A stretch of DNA of 64,000 bases from an uncultured Gemmatimonadales bacterium (GCA_963695555.1 CAVOGR010000007.1:544001-608000), one strand, 5' to 3'. Positions 32,645 to 41,631 are shown, counted from the first letter of the stretch. A program made the numbers and translations. The notes: generated by a model not told the origin, from the sequence alone.

Positions 32645-33787
32645 TCACCCGGTCGGCACCCACTCACAGCCGGTATCGTCGATCAGGTAGCGCCTGATGA
32701 CCGACGTCACTCGTGAGGAATCGTCGAGTAAGGGCACTTGATCCAAAGCGAAGAGGGTGTCGCCGTGGACCGCAATCCGGGGCCACTCCGTGCCCGGAAA
32801 GGGAAGGGGCGTGTCCACACACGCGGATCGGCGGTCCGCCGAGAGGAGGCTGATGAAGGCCCGTCCAAACACGTGGACGCCAGTTCCCATTGGTTCTGTC
32901 CACCCGTCCTGAAACCAGAGCACAAAGGTGCCGTTCGGGAGTCTCCAGATATCCTTCAAAGCCGATATCGCCCTCATCTGCTCATCGAGATCCGGATTCC
33001 TGAAGCTGAATACCTTGAAGGCCTCCTTTGGGTTGCCGGTTCGGAGTCGTGCCGGGATCTGCACGGTGTCGAGCGGAACTCCGTCGATGGTATGCAAGGT
33101 CAGATAGTCGACCCCGGAGTAGCCAACCAACATCGTATCAGCCCACGCGGCAAAGGCTGAGCGATTGAACGTCATGAGATCGGGATAGTCGATGTATTCC
33201 TGAGGCCACGGGACCAGGTTTGAAGCGAGTGGTTCCGCGAGCCGGGCACTGTCGGGTGTCAGCAACTCCGGCACCGAGAGCGCCAGAATTCCCCGTTGGG
33301 AGTAGTAGTCGAAATTCGCGAAGATCACTTTCCCTCCGCGCGCAACACCGTGTGAGATGGTCCCCTGGGTTCGCCGGCCCATGTAGTAGCGCCCGGTCCT
33401 GCGATCGAATATCTGGATAGTGCGACTGGTGGGCTGCAGTATGAGGGTGTCTGCCAATGTCGTACCCTGGCTTAGGCTGCGGAATTCACCCGGGCCGCTT
33501 CCCTCCTTCCCGATGGTCCGGTCGATTCGCCCGTCCGGATGAAAGCGAACCACCCGATTCCAGAACTCGTCGGGGATATAGATCGCACCACGGTCGTCAA
33601 CAGTGAAGCTGACCGCGGGACGACCCAGATACAGCGTATCGTTCTCTTCGAGGATCACCGAATCGAGCAAGGCCAGGGAGGGGCCAGGGCCCTGCCCACG
33701 TTCATTGGCGCTGGCCGAGCACCCAACGATGAGGCAGAGTGCCGACGCCTTGAACAGTCCGACGATGCGTCCCTCATGTCTCGACAT
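32645..33787 (-). CDS. 6-bladed beta-propeller lipoprotein, divergent from the BTAD-STAND gene
   Basis: GGAGG RBS; lipobox IVGC; IGKEGSGPGEF motif. Confidence 0.8.
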   Translation of the reverse strand: MSRHEGRIVGLFKASALCLIVGCSASANERGQGPGPSLALLDSVILEENDTLYLGRPAVSFTVDDRGAIYIPDEFWNRVVRFHPDGRIDRTIGKEGSGPGEFRSLSQGTTLADTLILQPTSRTIQIFDRRTGRYYMGRRTQGTISHGVARGGKVIFANFDYYSQRGILALSVPELLTPDSARLAEPLASNLVPWPQEYIDYPDLMTFNRSAFAAWADTMLVGYSGVDYLTLHTIDGVPLDTVQIPARLRTGNPKEAFKVFSFRNPDLDEQMRAISALKDIWRLPNGTFVLWFQDGWTEPMGTGVHVFGRAFISLLSADRRSACVDTPLPFPGTEWPRIAVHGDTLFALDQVPLLDDSSRVTSVIRRYLIDDTGCEWVPTG

Positions 33788-33900
33788 GATACCCTCCAGG
33801 CCTGTCTCTCTGCACGGTACATCCGGGGTATGAAGCCGCGGTGAATCGACCCTGAGGACCGGCCGCACCGACCACCACTCTGCAGGCCATCAAGCCCATA

Positions 33901-33916
33901 CTAGGGAAAACCCTAG
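33901..33916. promoter_or_regulatory. Palindrome in the divergent promoter region
   Basis: CTAGGG-AAAA-CCCTAG. Confidence 0.4.
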
Positions 33917-34054
33917 CATCGTTCGACAACCCGCCAATTCGGCTGCAACATTACAGAGTTTCCGGCTTCGTAATCTAGGGCCAGGAACCGTGTTGAGACT
34001 TGGTTGAGGGCCCGGCCCCACTGTTGGCTGGCCCCACGCGAGAGGAGCGGGCCC

Positions 34055-38858: not shown

Positions 38859-38942
38859 TTAGTTCCAGACTACGCCTTCGGCCTTGGACAACAAATCGGC
38901 AATGAAGTTCACTGCCGCGGCGAGCCAGCTGATGTTCAGCAT
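38859..38942 (-). CDS. 27-aa small peptide MLNISWLAAAVNFIADLLSKAEGVVWN (putative signal precursor)
   Basis: Below the ORF-track cutoff. AAGGAGG RBS (38951-38957) 8 nt before ATG; TAA stop 43 nt upstream of the HD-GYP start. Confidence 0.75.
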   Translation of the reverse strand: MLNISWLAAAVNFIADLLSKAEGVVWN

Positions 38943-39154
38943 GAGCGTCACCTCCTTGGCGTTGAGTCACCGAAAGAAGGTGGCAAGCCTCGCTATGGCC
39001 TACCCGACGCTCCGCTCCTCAGTTGTCCGCTCACAACTCCGCTCGGTCCTACTACACGACCGGGGTCCCCTTCCGTTTTCTCCTTGAGTGCGAATTCCCT
39101 GAATGAGCTCTCCCGGGGCGCAGCGGCCACCGCACCCGATCAAGCGGGCGAAAC

Positions 39155-39922
39155 TCAACTCGCTCGGCGGATCGCGGTCCACCGGTTGGTGGCGTCGAGC
39201 ACCGCAAACACCGCGGCCCGCTCGGCGCTTTCCCTGATCTGCGCGGTGCCGGTCAGGAGCAGGCTCTCACGCCCGCCCAACCCCTGCACCGCCGCAAAGA
39301 CAAATTGACAATCGAACCCCTCGACGATCTTGGCGCCATCGAGCGCCACCGAGGCTCCCTCGAGCAACCGGTCCAACACCTCGATCGTGGCCCGCGCCGC
39401 AGCCTCGACCCGGCTCCGCGGGGTGTCGGAGCTTTCCGCGCCGGCAGCCTCGCTCTTGCCGTTGCTCGACAGGCTCACGGTCAGATTGATATGGTGTGGC
39501 TTGGTGCTGGGCGCCACCGTCAGGTTCTCGAACAGCACCGTGCGATGGCGCGCCCGGATCGACACGGCGTCCTGGTCCAGCGTTTCGATGGGCCGGACGT
39601 CGGCCGTCTGCGCGATGGATATTTTCCGATGGTCGACCCGGAGGCCGAGCTGCGCCAAGAGGGCCGACTCGATATTCCGAACCACCTGCTTTGGCGCCAG
39701 GCCGGCTTGCGCCAGGATGTGGATCTCGCTCACCTCGCCGAGCGGGGTGGTGACCACCCGCGCCGAGAGGACACCCTCGAGGCTGGTCAGCAGATTCTCG
39801 GCACGGCGCACGCCCCAGGGGTCGGGTGCGTCGCCGCTCGCGAATCCGCCGCCCGCCTCGCTGAACCCCGGCCGTCTGGAAGAACCCGAACCCGTCACAG
39901 GGACCCCGCCTTGCGTCATCAT
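39155..39922 (-). CDS. Conserved hypothetical cytoplasmic protein
   Basis: LEGVLSARVV..EIHILA..PKQVVRNIESAL..VDHRKISIAQ; C-terminal AAVFAVLDATNR; start overlaps the GGDEF stop. Confidence 0.8.
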   Translation of the reverse strand: MMTQGGVPVTGSGSSRRPGFSEAGGGFASGDAPDPWGVRRAENLLTSLEGVLSARVVTTPLGEVSEIHILAQAGLAPKQVVRNIESALLAQLGLRVDHRKISIAQTADVRPIETLDQDAVSIRARHRTVLFENLTVAPSTKPHHINLTVSLSSNGKSEAAGAESSDTPRSRVEAAARATIEVLDRLLEGASVALDGAKIVEGFDCQFVFAAVQGLGGRESLLLTGTAQIRESAERAAVFAVLDATNRWTAIRRAS

Positions 39923-41631
39923 GAGTGAGCGCCGCTCGCAGCCTTCGGGTTGTGATTGGCCACGAGATTCCGTCCCGCCGCCTTCGCCTGATACAGTGCC
40001 CGGTCCGCCGTCACCAGCAAGTCGCCATCGACCGGACGGCGCGGATCGAATTCCGCAATCCCGATGCTCGCCGTCACCAGCCCCGAGGGATACCCCAGCC
40101 GGCGTCCTTCGCCCTCGATGCCGGCCCGGAGCGCCTCGGCCACCCGGCTCCCGCCGTGCAGATCGGTCCGGGTCAGGATGACCACGAACTCGTCGCCGCC
40201 GTAGCGGGCCGCCAAGTCCGACGCACGCACCGCTCCCCTCACCTCGCCCGCCACCGCACGCAAGACCTCGTTGCCGGCCTCGTGGCCGTACCGGTCGTTC
40301 AATTCCTTGAACCGATCGAGATCTATAAATAACACCGCGAAGCCTTCATTGCTTCGTTTGCTGCGCTCGATCTCGTAGCCCAGCCGCTCCCGCAGCACCT
40401 TGACCGTCGACAGCCCCGTCAACGGATCGGTGGCCGCCTCGCGCGTCGCCTCTTCGGCGCGGCGCTCCTGGTACGGCACGCACTGCCTGAGGGTGGCCCG
40501 CCCGAGCGCCGCCGCAACCGCGAAACGAGCGCAGGTATCGAACCCGCAGGCGCCGCAGTCCCAGGCCTTCCCGTTGGGCCCCGTGCCGATCGCATCCAGA
40601 ATGCCGGCGACGTCGCCGGCGTTCGAGTCCGGCACCCGGCTCTTGATGTCGAACACGGCGCCCACGCTGGCCACCACCGCGTTGTCCACCACCGGCGACG
40701 GACTCCGGGGCGGTTCCGTGCTGGCCACCACCGAGCGCCGCCAGAACAACTCCTCGCGCGGACCGGCCAACGGATGGTCCAGCGCGCCTTCTTGCGACAA
40801 CAGGTCCACGAATCCCAGGTCCAACCGGTCCACCGCCACGGCCCGAGCCAATGCCTTGATGGCCCAGAGACCGCGCATCTTCAGGAACTGCCCGCCCTGC
40901 TTGGCCTCGTCGAGGAGTACCAGCGGGAGACCGCCCGCGGCACTCAAGTGCCGGCGCCGCTCCTCGGGGATCCGGTCGAAATAATTCGGCTGGGCCAGGA
41001 CGTTCACGCCGCGCAGCCGGAAGATGTGCTCCAGGTCGTCGAACGTGATCGCCGCCGCCAGATTGGGATCCTCGATCGGCGGGCTGACCCCCACGTAAAC
41101 GATCTCAAGATTCGAGCCATAGCGGCCCTTCAGGTACCGTGCCTCGGCCACCGCGGGTATGGCAACCGGTGCCAGGTAGGGAATCAGCTCCGGGTACTCC
41201 CGTCGGATGGTCTCCACAACTACCGGGTCGGTGGACCGGATCAGGGTGCCCCAGTTCTCCTCGCGCCACAGCCTAAGGTATTCTGCGGCAACGAGTTCGT
41301 CGCCTATGACCCCGCGGTGGATGGTGCGGAAGCCTGCAACGTAGCACGCATTCACCACCTGCTCCGGGGTGGCCGGATAGAAGTGTGCCGCGGCCTCGGG
41401 GCTCAGGATCACCACCCCGTCCCCGCGGGCCGCCACGGCCAGCGCCCGGCCGATTTCGCCGCTCACATCGATGGCGTCGTGGGGGCAGGCCGGAACGCAC
41501 CGGCCGCAGCGGATACAGGCCTCATCCACCACCTGGACCACCGGTCCGGCGATCGCCACGGCATCGGTCGGGCAGACCCGGACACAGGCGAGGCAACCGA
41601 CGCAGCTGTCAGCGTTTACCGTGAATTTCAC
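39919..41631 (-). CDS. Diguanylate cyclase with 2x[4Fe-4S] ferredoxin, [FeFe]-hydrogenase-like domain and Fe-S domain
   Basis: CVGCLACVRVCP, CIRCGRCVPACP, DCGACGFDTC...CVPY, TDPLTGL, DLDRFKELNDRYGH, RASD I-site, RYGGDEF. Confidence 0.88.
   Translation of the reverse strand: MKFTVNADSCVGCLACVRVCPTDAVAIAGPVVQVVDEACIRCGRCVPACPHDAIDVSGEIGRALAVAARGDGVVILSPEAAAHFYPATPEQVVNACYVAGFRTIHRGVIGDELVAAEYLRLWREENWGTLIRSTDPVVVETIRREYPELIPYLAPVAIPAVAEARYLKGRYGSNLEIVYVGVSPPIEDPNLAAAITFDDLEHIFRLRGVNVLAQPNYFDRIPEERRRHLSAAGGLPLVLLDEAKQGGQFLKMRGLWAIKALARAVAVDRLDLGFVDLLSQEGALDHPLAGPREELFWRRSVVASTEPPRSPSPVVDNAVVASVGAVFDIKSRVPDSNAGDVAGILDAIGTGPNGKAWDCGACGFDTCARFAVAAALGRATLRQCVPYQERRAEEATREAATDPLTGLSTVKVLRERLGYEIERSKRSNEGFAVLFIDLDRFKELNDRYGHEAGNEVLRAVAGEVRGAVRASDLAARYGGDEFVVILTRTDLHGGSRVAEALRAGIEGEGRRLGYPSGLVTASIGIAEFDPRRPVDGDLLVTADRALYQAKAAGRNLVANHNPKAASGAHS

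Follow-up and report, generated by a model that had tools for sequence, protein, structure and literature searches.

The DNA analyzed here is a stretch of 64,000 nucleotides (nt) from a metagenome-assembled genome (MAG) of an uncultured Gemmatimonadales bacterium (GCA_963695555.1, CAVOGR010000007.1:544001-608000). Below, this whole stretch is called the window, and positions are counted from its first letter. It contains, in a region with a GC content of 0.60-0.70, a locus for turnover of the second messenger cyclic di-GMP (c-di-GMP), and our subject is a very short open reading frame (ORF), the micro-ORF, that lies within this locus just upstream of an HD-GYP gene. ORF reading combined with Pfam and NCBIfam scans revealed a run of minus-strand genes that encode, in the order of transcription, a sigma-54 activator, an iron-sulfur (Fe-S) protein with a GGDEF cyclase domain, a protein of 255 amino acids (aa), the micro-ORF product and the HD-GYP protein. 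The first gene of this conserved run (41739-43241, minus strand) encodes a sigma-54 enhancer-binding protein in which Pfam recognizes an AAA+ sigma-54 interaction domain and a Fis-type helix-turn-helix (HTH), while its 126 N-terminal residues match no Pfam family. It is followed on the same strand by the gene for the 570-aa Fe-S diguanylate cyclase (39919-41631), the gene for the conserved, family-less 255-aa protein (39155-39922), whose start overlaps the cyclase stop by 4 nt, the micro-ORF of 27 codons (38859-38942; ATG at 38942, stop at 38859-38861; 30 aa when read from the GTG at 38951), and an ORF for an HD-GYP catalytic domain of 266 aa (37415-38215). A plus-strand gene for a regulator of 1130 aa (34004-37396) converges on this run, its stop being 18 nt from that of the HD-GYP ORF. 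A preliminary description of this DNA had proposed the run from the Fe-S/GGDEF protein through a conserved hypothetical protein and a 27-aa ORF to HD-GYP, as well as its convergence, across an 18-nt gap, on a gene for a protein with winged HTH (wHTH), BTAD, STAND and TPR regions. Both proposals were borne out, the former by the ORFs and the Pfam matches. That description had missed the sigma-54 activator gene and the structured RNA around the small ORF; the presence of the micro-ORF within a conserved structured RNA, as seen in the alignments presented below, is what we add to it.

The micro-ORF of the window encodes a hydrophobic helix followed by the tail E-G-V-V-W-N, and a strong extended Shine-Dalgarno sequence (SD) is located 5 nt upstream of it. 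Its conservation was analyzed in two sets of loci. The first set contains 25 loci taken around HD-GYP orthologues in three families of the order (f1, f2 and f3, f1 being the family of the window). The second set was obtained by an alignment search with the 255-aa protein using one genome per species, which yielded 584 loci confirmed by tblastn; we retained the 80 best. Their label is Gemmatimonadales or Gemmatimonadota in nearly every case, four being recorded under a different name. At least three second-set loci lie on contigs that are also represented in the first set, so the sets are not independent. In the first set, a small ORF encoding a hydrophobic stretch and a Trp near the C-terminus was present just upstream of the HD-GYP gene in 21 of 22 sequences (window included); the exception, L034, reads through because it differs by 1 nt from its nearest relatives. 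For the second set, we searched the 66 loci with at least 420 nt after the 255-aa gene using a filter for ORFs of 12-40 codons with a Trp among the last six residues and a start codon located 8-19 nt behind the first base of an SD-like motif. This filter found the micro-ORF in 59 of them, and inspection of the seven misses revealed two variant SD sequences, two ORFs lacking the Trp, one in-frame stop and two contig ends. The total for the second set is 61 of 64 assessable loci, with SD-led ORFs of 21-35 codons that end in an E-G-Q-x-W-x tail. The same filter found nothing on the opposite strand (0/66) nor, on each strand, 2 kb upstream (0/59). Thus, small ORFs that are led by a ribosome-binding site and end in G-x-x-W-x do occur upstream of orthologous HD-GYP genes, as the preliminary description had anticipated.

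The consensus of the encoded peptides is M-L-(K/Q)-I-S-W-L-A-A...F-V-A-x-L-F-x-(A/S)-E-G-Q-x-W-x, and lengths in the family range from 16 to 35 aa. The Trp is invariant both in an alignment of 21 rows (A2) and in all 76 distinct nucleotide sequences. The residues that precede it in the tail are encoded by various synonymous codons: Glu at -4 by GAA (44) and GAG (15), Gly at -3 by GGC (25), GGG (16), GGA (10) and GGT (5), and Gln at -2 by CAG (31) and CAA (8). In addition, the second codon position of the micro-ORF is the least variable one (entropy 1.41 versus 1.71 and 1.73), and no such period was present in an upstream control. Since Glu, Gly and Gln use synonymous codons and codon position 2 varies least, conservation acts on the protein. 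The best mean Kyte-Doolittle hydropathy over 15 residues was 0.47-2.33 among 22 members and was above 1.5 in most of them. No Pfam or NCBIfam family matches the peptide. Together, these comparisons strongly indicate that the small ORF is a real, conserved micro-gene.

Conservation is not limited to the micro-ORF: about 165 nt upstream of it are highly conserved across genera, as is evident from an alignment of 60 sequences (A4). Comparative analysis of this region and its extension past the ORF indicates that a conserved RNA fold, about 230-280 nt long and without an Rfam counterpart, encloses the micro-ORF; a scan of positions 37300-43500 on both strands against Rfam 15 gave no match at E values up to 1. 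The leader core (38931-39094, minus strand) was delineated using alignment A4, RNAalifold, pair counts and a covariance model (R1). The best supported element of the core is hairpin B, formed by 38997-39004 and 38982-38989 (minus strand) with a loop at 38990-38996. In A4, five of its seven pairs show compensatory changes, 97.6% of the cells are paired, and the seven-base loop is almost invariant. In helix C, an anti-SD sequence (38977-38981) pairs with the SD of the micro-ORF (38950-38954), both on the minus strand. Compensatory changes were observed for two of six pairs of this helix and 92.8% of the cells are paired: CUUCCC faces GGGAGG in most loci, and CUCCUU faces AAGGAG in one clade. Helix A (39006-39012 with 38943-38949, minus strand, continuing into the AUG) joins an invariant segment to the equally invariant spacer between SD and start codon plus the U and G of the AUG, and is paired in 98.7% of the cells. 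Taken as a whole, the A4 fold has 93.4% of its cells paired compared to 41-51% when the partners are slid, and its covariation score was reached by none of 500 shuffles.

Alignment A5, which is extended past the ORF, revealed one more helix. RNAalifold predicted on it a helix named P0, which joins the 5' end of the leader (39060-39068, minus strand) to the spacer behind the micro-ORF stop codon (38838-38846, minus strand), and six of its seven pairs show compensatory changes. For the whole A5 structure 13 pairs are changed on both sides, a number that none of 500 shuffles reached (shuffled mean 9.4), and 95.2% of the cells are paired versus 41-48% when slid. In the window the 3' strand of P0 begins 12 nt after the micro-ORF stop and lies 22 nt before the HD-GYP ATG. 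The distance between the stop and this strand is 3-19 nt with a median of 12 in 58 of 59 loci, and that between the stop and the HD-GYP ATG is 29-54 nt in 43 of 51 loci. According to our reading of the sequences, the bases just before the HD-GYP ATG are mostly pyrimidine-rich and lack an SD. The arrangement predicted here is therefore that of a leader ORF, i.e. a short ORF within an RNA structure that would occlude a downstream initiation region.

The core also contains three AGCGGA repeats (39038-39043, 39026-39031 and 39011-39016, minus strand). These repeats are about 10 and 15 nt apart, are nearly invariant in the 60 loci, and the third provides the 5' strand of the helix over the micro-ORF start. 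DNA boxes of the SARP type recur with a regular period of 11 nt. We considered such boxes as an explanation for the repeats and rejected it: the spacing of about 10 and 15 nt is irregular, and the surrounding G-U pairs and compensatory changes point to RNA. As a separate observation, a contig from an RNA library (metatranscriptome, run X1) covers positions 38936-39304 with one mismatch and thereby includes the entire leader as far as the start of the micro-ORF, together with the 3' end of the 255-aa gene; DNA carry-over is possible, so no claim on expression is attached to it.

Covariance model R1 detected a single site in the genome of the window (E 1.6e-32), and the leader is single-copy per genome. 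Within the first set, R1 matched all loci of families f1 and f3, and gave only weak matches for f2 (E 0.0017-0.9). R1 detected the leader in 62 of the 151 genomes sampled from the phylum (f1 57/71, f3 2/2, f2 0/31), a tally that includes the unpublished genome G083.

The genes around the micro-ORF are conserved as well. In the first set, the 255-aa gene was present in all 21 loci that reach it and the convergent STAND gene in 23 of 25 loci; one of the two loci lacking the latter ends 616 nt after the HD-GYP match. The Fe-S cyclase gene was found in 12 of 21 loci and is missing from nine, which include all f2 and f3 loci; in f2 and f3 loci lacking the cyclase the sigma-54 gene is usually next to the 255-aa gene instead. 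Counting only the second-set loci with sufficient room, the HD-GYP gene follows the 255-aa gene in 50 of 50, the latter is directly preceded by the cyclase gene in 65 of 69, and a sigma-54 gene is located upstream in 65 of 65; the convergent STAND gene was found in 37 of 40 loci. Synteny with the STAND gene, for which the preliminary description had asked, is thus conserved in both sets. Altogether, the comparisons indicate that the window carries the local copy of a c-di-GMP turnover locus that is conserved in Gemmatimonadales. Four loci (L024, L026, L027 and L028, from genomes G023, G013, G022 and G014) have an extra ORF of about 200 codons with high GC at third codon positions (GC3) between the 255-aa gene and the RNA leader; judged by eye, its product is a candidate for an excisionase-type HTH followed by a receiver domain.

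HD-GYP phosphodiesterases are recognized by an HD dyad and the motif HHExxDGxGYP. Both are legible in the translation of 37415-38215, which also matches Pfam HD_5 (E 5e-35), so that by sequence this ORF belongs to the HD-GYP phosphodiesterases. The preliminary description had the window encode an intact HD-GYP protein with several transmembrane (TM) segments. This is not what we found, since the 266-aa catalytic ORF is the only open part of the gene. Intact orthologues start with a membrane domain: the 465-aa protein encoded by a same-genus genome (L014:2230-3624) matches Pfam MASE9 (PF20972) with 32.9 bits (cut-off 24.3) followed by HD_5, an orthologue from a second genus scores 31.4 bits for MASE9, and the orthologues in 41 related genomes, counting the unpublished genome G018, have open frames of mostly 453-548 aa. 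In the window, the corresponding region is disrupted (38216-38815, minus strand). The 600 nt from the expected ATG at 38815 to 38216 contain nine stops in the catalytic frame and, compared with the intact 465-aa orthologue, at least 10 frame changes. This count is based on three-frame translation, which places MASE9 fragments in all three frames, and on a DNA alignment with two same-genus genomes, which revealed about 15 single-base insertions or deletions (indels). The MASE9-coding DNA is far more diverged between same-genus genomes than its neighbors are, the 255-aa protein being 98-99% identical and the catalytic part of HD-GYP 92-94%.

The disrupted frame could mean that the system is truly dead in this genome, in which case the MASE9 part would have decayed and at most a soluble catalytic fragment would be left. 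Nine stops and at least 10 frame changes within 600 nt flanked by intact genes would fit such decay, as would the facts that the MASE9 region is the most diverged stretch among same-genus genomes and that one of these, G002, is garbled in the first 60 or so codons of its HD-GYP gene. However, breakage follows the type of assembly. The MASE9 frame is broken in six of 51 related loci that have both genes; all six belong to a group of 17 loci whose MAGs consist of few, very long contigs with names of the type 'contig_N' (which, from contig names and sizes, we take to be long-read assemblies), and none is among the 34 on short-read-style contigs. In G002, an assembly of 10 contigs, the STAND gene (L013, contig C5, 6271-9666) matches in four pieces in different frames and the sigma-54 gene (14013-15511) in two, which suggests that frameshifts are common in this assembly. 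The window itself contains a second frameshifted gene 7 kb away: the S1/P1 nuclease gene (29716-30705, minus strand) is split such that residues 1-67 of the Pfam profile match in ORF 29716-30705 and residues 84-257 in another frame (29799-30362). Furthermore, short-read contigs that two studies provide for near relatives are in frame where the window is broken, departing from it by 1-nt indels at 38140, 38181, 38537, 38540, 38590, 38643, 38680/38684, 38737 and 38785. A search for sequencing runs sharing half or more of the words of 37400-39960 found none. In the runs that were analyzed, no sequence covered about 38260-38430, a gap to which we attach no conclusion. Considering that the breaks are confined to MAGs with few long contigs, that genes of G002 are split, that the nuclease gene is frameshifted and that the short-read contigs of near relatives are in frame, a consensus error made in long-read assembly is a likelier explanation of the broken MASE9 region than real decay. 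Full conservation of the catalytic domain, micro-ORF and leader also argues against decay, which we consider rather unlikely.

The 255-aa protein encoded immediately upstream of the leader has no Pfam or NCBIfam match. It has 3533 relatives, and among the 120 listed none bears a name beyond 'hypothetical'. An AlphaFold2 model (pLDDT 83) predicts two domains. The N-terminal one is ferredoxin-like (Z about 8, a common fold). The C-terminal one resembles the allosteric amino-acid-binding domain of LeuA and citramalate synthase: Foldseek matched it to LeuA with an E value of 2e-6, and a VIA-align comparison with the regulatory domain of LiCMS gave a Z score of 9.6 with 109 residues aligned at an rmsd of 3.0. 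According to the model, therefore, the protein folds like a ligand-binding regulatory domain and unlike an enzyme. The possibility that it is a peptide-modifying enzyme was considered and discarded, as fold searches returned regulatory and ferredoxin-like domains only. Speculatively, it is a candidate autoregulator acting on the leader; three AGCGGA repeats and a leader that is single-copy and locus-specific would suit autoregulation by a product of the locus.

We also modeled the peptide together with MASE9. Using the 30-residue reading of the same-genus peptide and MASE9 residues 1-245, each given as its own alignment, co-folding gave a score of 0.46 (0.41, 0.52 and 0.46 in individual runs), versus 0.01 for the best control. 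The runs agreed in at least 93% of the contacts, and the pLDDT of the partner was at least 69. The mark applied is reached by 116 of 157 solved complexes and by two of 215 mismatched pairs, rates that are approximate here because own alignments were used. Hence, the co-fold of peptide and sensor put forward in the preliminary description did pass the mark, but did so in the weak band. The authors who described MASE9 propose that ligands bind to it within the membrane (bioRxiv 10.1101/2021.11.05.467447, available sections), which makes a hydrophobic partner encoded by a neighboring gene attractive. The product of the micro-ORF probably also works as a peptide, given that its tail is conserved at the amino-acid level and that its hydrophobic helix persists. 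Most plausibly it would be a small membrane partner of MASE9, as the co-fold weakly supports.

Together these results lead us to propose that an RNA-plus-micro-ORF device controls translation of the HD-GYP gene in cis, that the locus is conserved, that the MASE9 break is more likely an assembly error, and that the peptide probably acts as well. We assign a probability of roughly 0.55 to this combined reading. Control in cis is indicated because the RNA fold ties translation of the micro-ORF to the HD-GYP start. In the closed fold both the micro-ORF and the HD-GYP gene would be silent. A cue, which could be a ligand, a protein or temperature, would open helices A and C and allow ribosomes to translate the micro-ORF. 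On the downstream side, a ribosome extends about 12-15 nt beyond its decoding site; on reaching the micro-ORF stop, 12 nt before the 3' strand of P0, it would therefore melt this helix. Melting of P0 would then permit translation of HD-GYP to be initiated, or re-initiated, at its start codon 29-54 nt farther downstream. The device thus looks like built-in control of HD-GYP rather than a cell-to-cell signal.

Several observations weigh against this proposal. The whole mechanism is drawn from comparison of sequences where translation, coupling and binding are concerned. Helix A has no covariation support of its own, as seven of its 10 pairs never vary, and a further helix proposed by eye, P1, is weak (83.5% paired, one compensatory pair). 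The leader model fails to reach family f2 although f2 loci do have the small ORF. Selection on the peptide seems moderate only, since nine close pairs summed to 38 synonymous versus 72 non-synonymous codon differences. Two loci that keep the leader have micro-ORFs without the Trp, with tails ...E-G-Q-T-A-L (L052) and ...S-E-T-Q-K-Y-E (L049), and the micro-ORF of L089 has an in-frame stop at codon 10; all three may be sequence errors or natural variants. Some members are just 16-17 aa long, which is short for a membrane-spanning helix. As to the co-fold, only 18 of the 157 solved complexes passed in the band up to 0.60, which also holds both mismatched pairs that ever passed, and in this weak band wrong passes outnumber right ones, except for guesses that were already likely. 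Finally, real pseudogenization of MASE9 in this genome keeps the minor share of the probability given to it above.

The micro-ORF can also be interpreted in ways that do not involve this RNA device. The preliminary description took it for the precursor of a processed and exported peptide whose Trp tail is sensed from outside by MASE9 and/or the TPR region of the STAND protein, resulting in quorum- or kin-like control of c-di-GMP. The small ORF does adjoin a membrane sensor gene with a TPR regulator near, the amino-acid sequence of its C-terminal tail is conserved, the STAND gene keeps its syntenic position, and the co-fold with MASE9 (0.46 versus 0.01 for the best control) lends this idea some weak support too. 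On the other hand, the peptides measure 16-35 aa overall and are hydrophobic from residue 2, so that there is no separate leader or signal peptide to remove. In addition, family scans of the genes in the 29.4-45.8 kb part of the window found no exporter, peptidase or peptide-modifying enzyme: the module is flanked upstream by a MogA-like gene, gcvT and a gene for an ornithine/aspartate carbamoyltransferase (OTCase), and downstream by genes for a parvulin-type peptidyl-prolyl isomerase (PPIase) and the S1/P1 nuclease, while the adjacent 255-aa protein resembles an allosteric ligand-binding domain. The ORF is, moreover, locked in an RNA fold that links it in cis to the HD-GYP start. A secreted peptide found no support in these observations, and we regard it as very improbable. 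It is less improbable, albeit unlikely, that the micro-ORF encodes solely a trans-acting small membrane protein that modulates MASE9 in the way MgrB modulates PhoQ, with the fold setting its dose and HD-GYP being translated independently. Conservation at the amino-acid level combined with a hydrophobic helix, the very strong SD and the weak co-fold support would all agree with this, and small membrane proteins that bind sensor kinases are established, as the available parts of two reports on MgrB indicate (PMC2789325, PMC8404706). What it leaves unexplained is that P0 spans the whole micro-ORF, ends beside the HD-GYP start and covaries strongly, that the spacing between the stop and P0 is tightly kept, and that HD-GYP starts mostly lack an SD; independent translation of both genes accounts for none of these features.

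Another alternative is that the peptide regulates while still being made. In this case the E-G-Q-x-W-x tail would arrest the ribosome close to the stop codon or on it, perhaps in response to a small molecule, which would keep P0 open and turn on translation of HD-GYP; the free peptide would have no function. TnaC and SpeFL are examples of leader peptides that stall ribosomes in response to small molecules. Conservation of the peptide is strongest in the last six residues, which at termination are beside the peptidyl-transferase center, while the N-terminal part varies in sequence and length; the stop is one ribosome footprint away from P0, and the peptide is short enough to fit wholly into the exit tunnel. 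However, the N-terminal part keeps its hydrophobic, helical character in three families, which a pure arrest peptide would not need, and by our reading the known arrest motifs RAPP, RAGP and W-x3-D-x7-P do not occur in the peptides. Stalling as the sole function thus seems improbable. Partnership with MASE9 and stalling of the nascent chain at the stop are nevertheless compatible with each other. An extension of the cis-acting device would combine them: the leader would represent a new class of RNA switch for c-di-GMP homeostasis, in which the AGCGGA repeats and the loop of hairpin B bind the cue (a nucleotide second messenger or the ligand-loaded protein with the LeuA-regulatory-like domain), thereby opening the SD and AUG of the micro-ORF, and the Trp-tailed peptide, nascent or released, would add another checkpoint, in that it would stall and so keep P0 open, dock in the MASE9 bundle, or do both. 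We consider this extension distinctly unlikely in its full form; if true, one RNA-peptide device would set both the synthesis and the activity of the phosphodiesterase.

Our literature search, which covered mostly work outside subscription journals, found no description of the micro-ORF or the leader, and the proposed device shares features with several known systems. Leader ORFs whose translation unmasks sequestered start sites are familiar from the erm and cat leader peptides. In Salmonella, the short ORF mgtQ precedes mgtB within alternative stem-loops, and its translation promotes that of mgtB (PMC8092293, accessible part). The locus studied here would resemble mgtQ/mgtB in that stem-loops contain a short ORF and a helix holds the initiation region of the gene behind it; translation of that gene would, as with mgtB, depend on the short ORF. 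Unlike what the accessible part of that source describes, the micro-ORF appears to have its own SD and AUG sequestered as well, through a conserved domain of the upstream RNA that carries the three AGCGGA repeats; the closing helix encloses the ORF from end to end, conservation of the peptide at the amino-acid level extends across families, and the target is a c-di-GMP phosphodiesterase. What the locus would share with the MgrB-PhoQ pair, as far as the available parts of the reports cover it (PMC2789325, PMC8404706), is a hydrophobic protein a few dozen residues long, encoded within the circuit of the signaling enzyme whose membrane part it is proposed to target. Unlike MgrB, which has 47 aa and targets a histidine kinase, the peptide has 16-35 aa with an invariant Trp near its C-terminus, and its gene is immediately upstream of that of its presumed MASE9-HD-GYP target, for which binding is predicted by the weak co-fold. 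That target itself conforms to the MASE9-HD-GYP phosphodiesterases (bioRxiv 10.1101/2021.11.05.467447), MASE9 preceding HD_5 in the intact orthologue and the catalytic motifs being present in the window ORF. The available sections of this preprint by Galperin and Chou mention neither an upstream micro-ORF nor an RNA leader, and the only studied MASE9-HD-GYP member they name is HdgA of Streptomyces venezuelae.

The c-di-GMP riboswitches GEMM-I and GEMM-II precede GGDEF, EAL or HD-GYP genes. The leader resembles these riboswitches in being a structured element before a c-di-GMP turnover gene and in having a helix that sequesters an SD; unlike them, it has no match in Rfam 15, is single-copy per genome and encloses a coding micro-ORF. 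With the RRNPP and agr systems the locus shares a tiny ORF beside a sensor gene and a TPR-containing regulator near it; it differs from them in that there is no export signal, no gene for processing or export nearby, and the ORF forms part of what appears to be a cis-acting RNA device. The regulator differs too, since in place of the HTH-TPR receptor of RRNPP systems there is a convergent AfsR-like STAND protein.

If the proposal is correct it would have implications beyond this locus. MASE9, like most membrane sensor domains of c-di-GMP enzymes, has no known ligand or partner, and the micropeptide is a concrete candidate. The layout of the leader, in which occlusion of SD and AUG is combined with a long-range helix around a coding micro-ORF, would extend control by leader ORFs to the turnover of a second messenger. 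The module is widespread in Gemmatimonadales of soil and sediment (584 tblastn-confirmed loci), in a phylum with very few studied regulatory systems, and it illustrates that a micro-gene overlooked by gene callers can be the conserved center of a locus.

The other proteins of the module have the following predicted features. The Fe-S cyclase contains two 4Fe-4S ferredoxin motifs, part of an [FeFe]-hydrogenase large-subunit domain, a PF04060 Fe-S motif and a GGDEF domain (Pfam GGDEF E 3e-39, TIGR00254 E 1e-45). An intact GGDEF motif is legible in its translation with an RxxD motif five residues upstream, in agreement with a predicted cyclase. The hydrogenase part gave a partial match to Fe_hyd_lg_C (E 1.3e-8, profile positions 4-130 of 245), and the NCBIfam model FeFe_hydrog_B1 gave 71 bits against a cut-off of 450. 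In having ferredoxin clusters and a hydrogenase-like domain fused to a signaling output the protein resembles the sensory hydrogenase-like HydS proteins of groups C and D; it differs from these in its GGDEF output and in a match that covers the hydrogenase domain only partially. The convergent protein has the AfsR/SARP-like domain order of an OmpR-type wHTH, BTAD, a STAND-type NTPase and TPR, and is a predicted regulator. Its BTAD (31.8 bits, cut-off 22.1), AAA_16 (88 bits) and TPR_12 (34.9 bits) matches are all above the Pfam cut-offs, and Trans_reg_C, which corresponds to the wHTH, is under it (19.7 bits, cut-off 26.2). Sequence comparison of this protein with solved structures gave no match at E values up to 0.001.

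Divergent from the STAND gene, and outside the conserved module, is a gene for a putative lipoprotein of 407 aa (32645-33868, minus strand). The preliminary description had named it a beta-propeller lipoprotein: its divergent orientation and a lipobox-like N-terminus were confirmed, but the propeller match is weak (E 9e-4, below the Pfam cut-off), and tblastn gave no match for it in any of six related loci with room beyond the STAND start.

Sigma-54 promoters were searched for by pattern, and no convincing one was found across the module. The pattern TGGCAC-N5-TTGCW with up to two mismatches occurred 25 times in the window versus 22.7 expected. A site with one mismatch at 38597-38612 was rejected as a promoter as it is located in conserved coding sequence, and a loose -24/-12 pattern was present in the spacer upstream of the micro-ORF in eight of 59 loci, at positions that are not fixed. 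The 107-nt spacer between the sigma-54 gene and the cyclase gene (41632-41738) contains one poor -24/-12-like site (41658-41673, two mismatches). As a last observation, the GC content is reduced to 0.52-0.54 where the STAND gene encodes its C-terminal TPR part (36000-37500) and to 0.58 over the MASE9 region, compared to 0.65-0.69 in the flanks.

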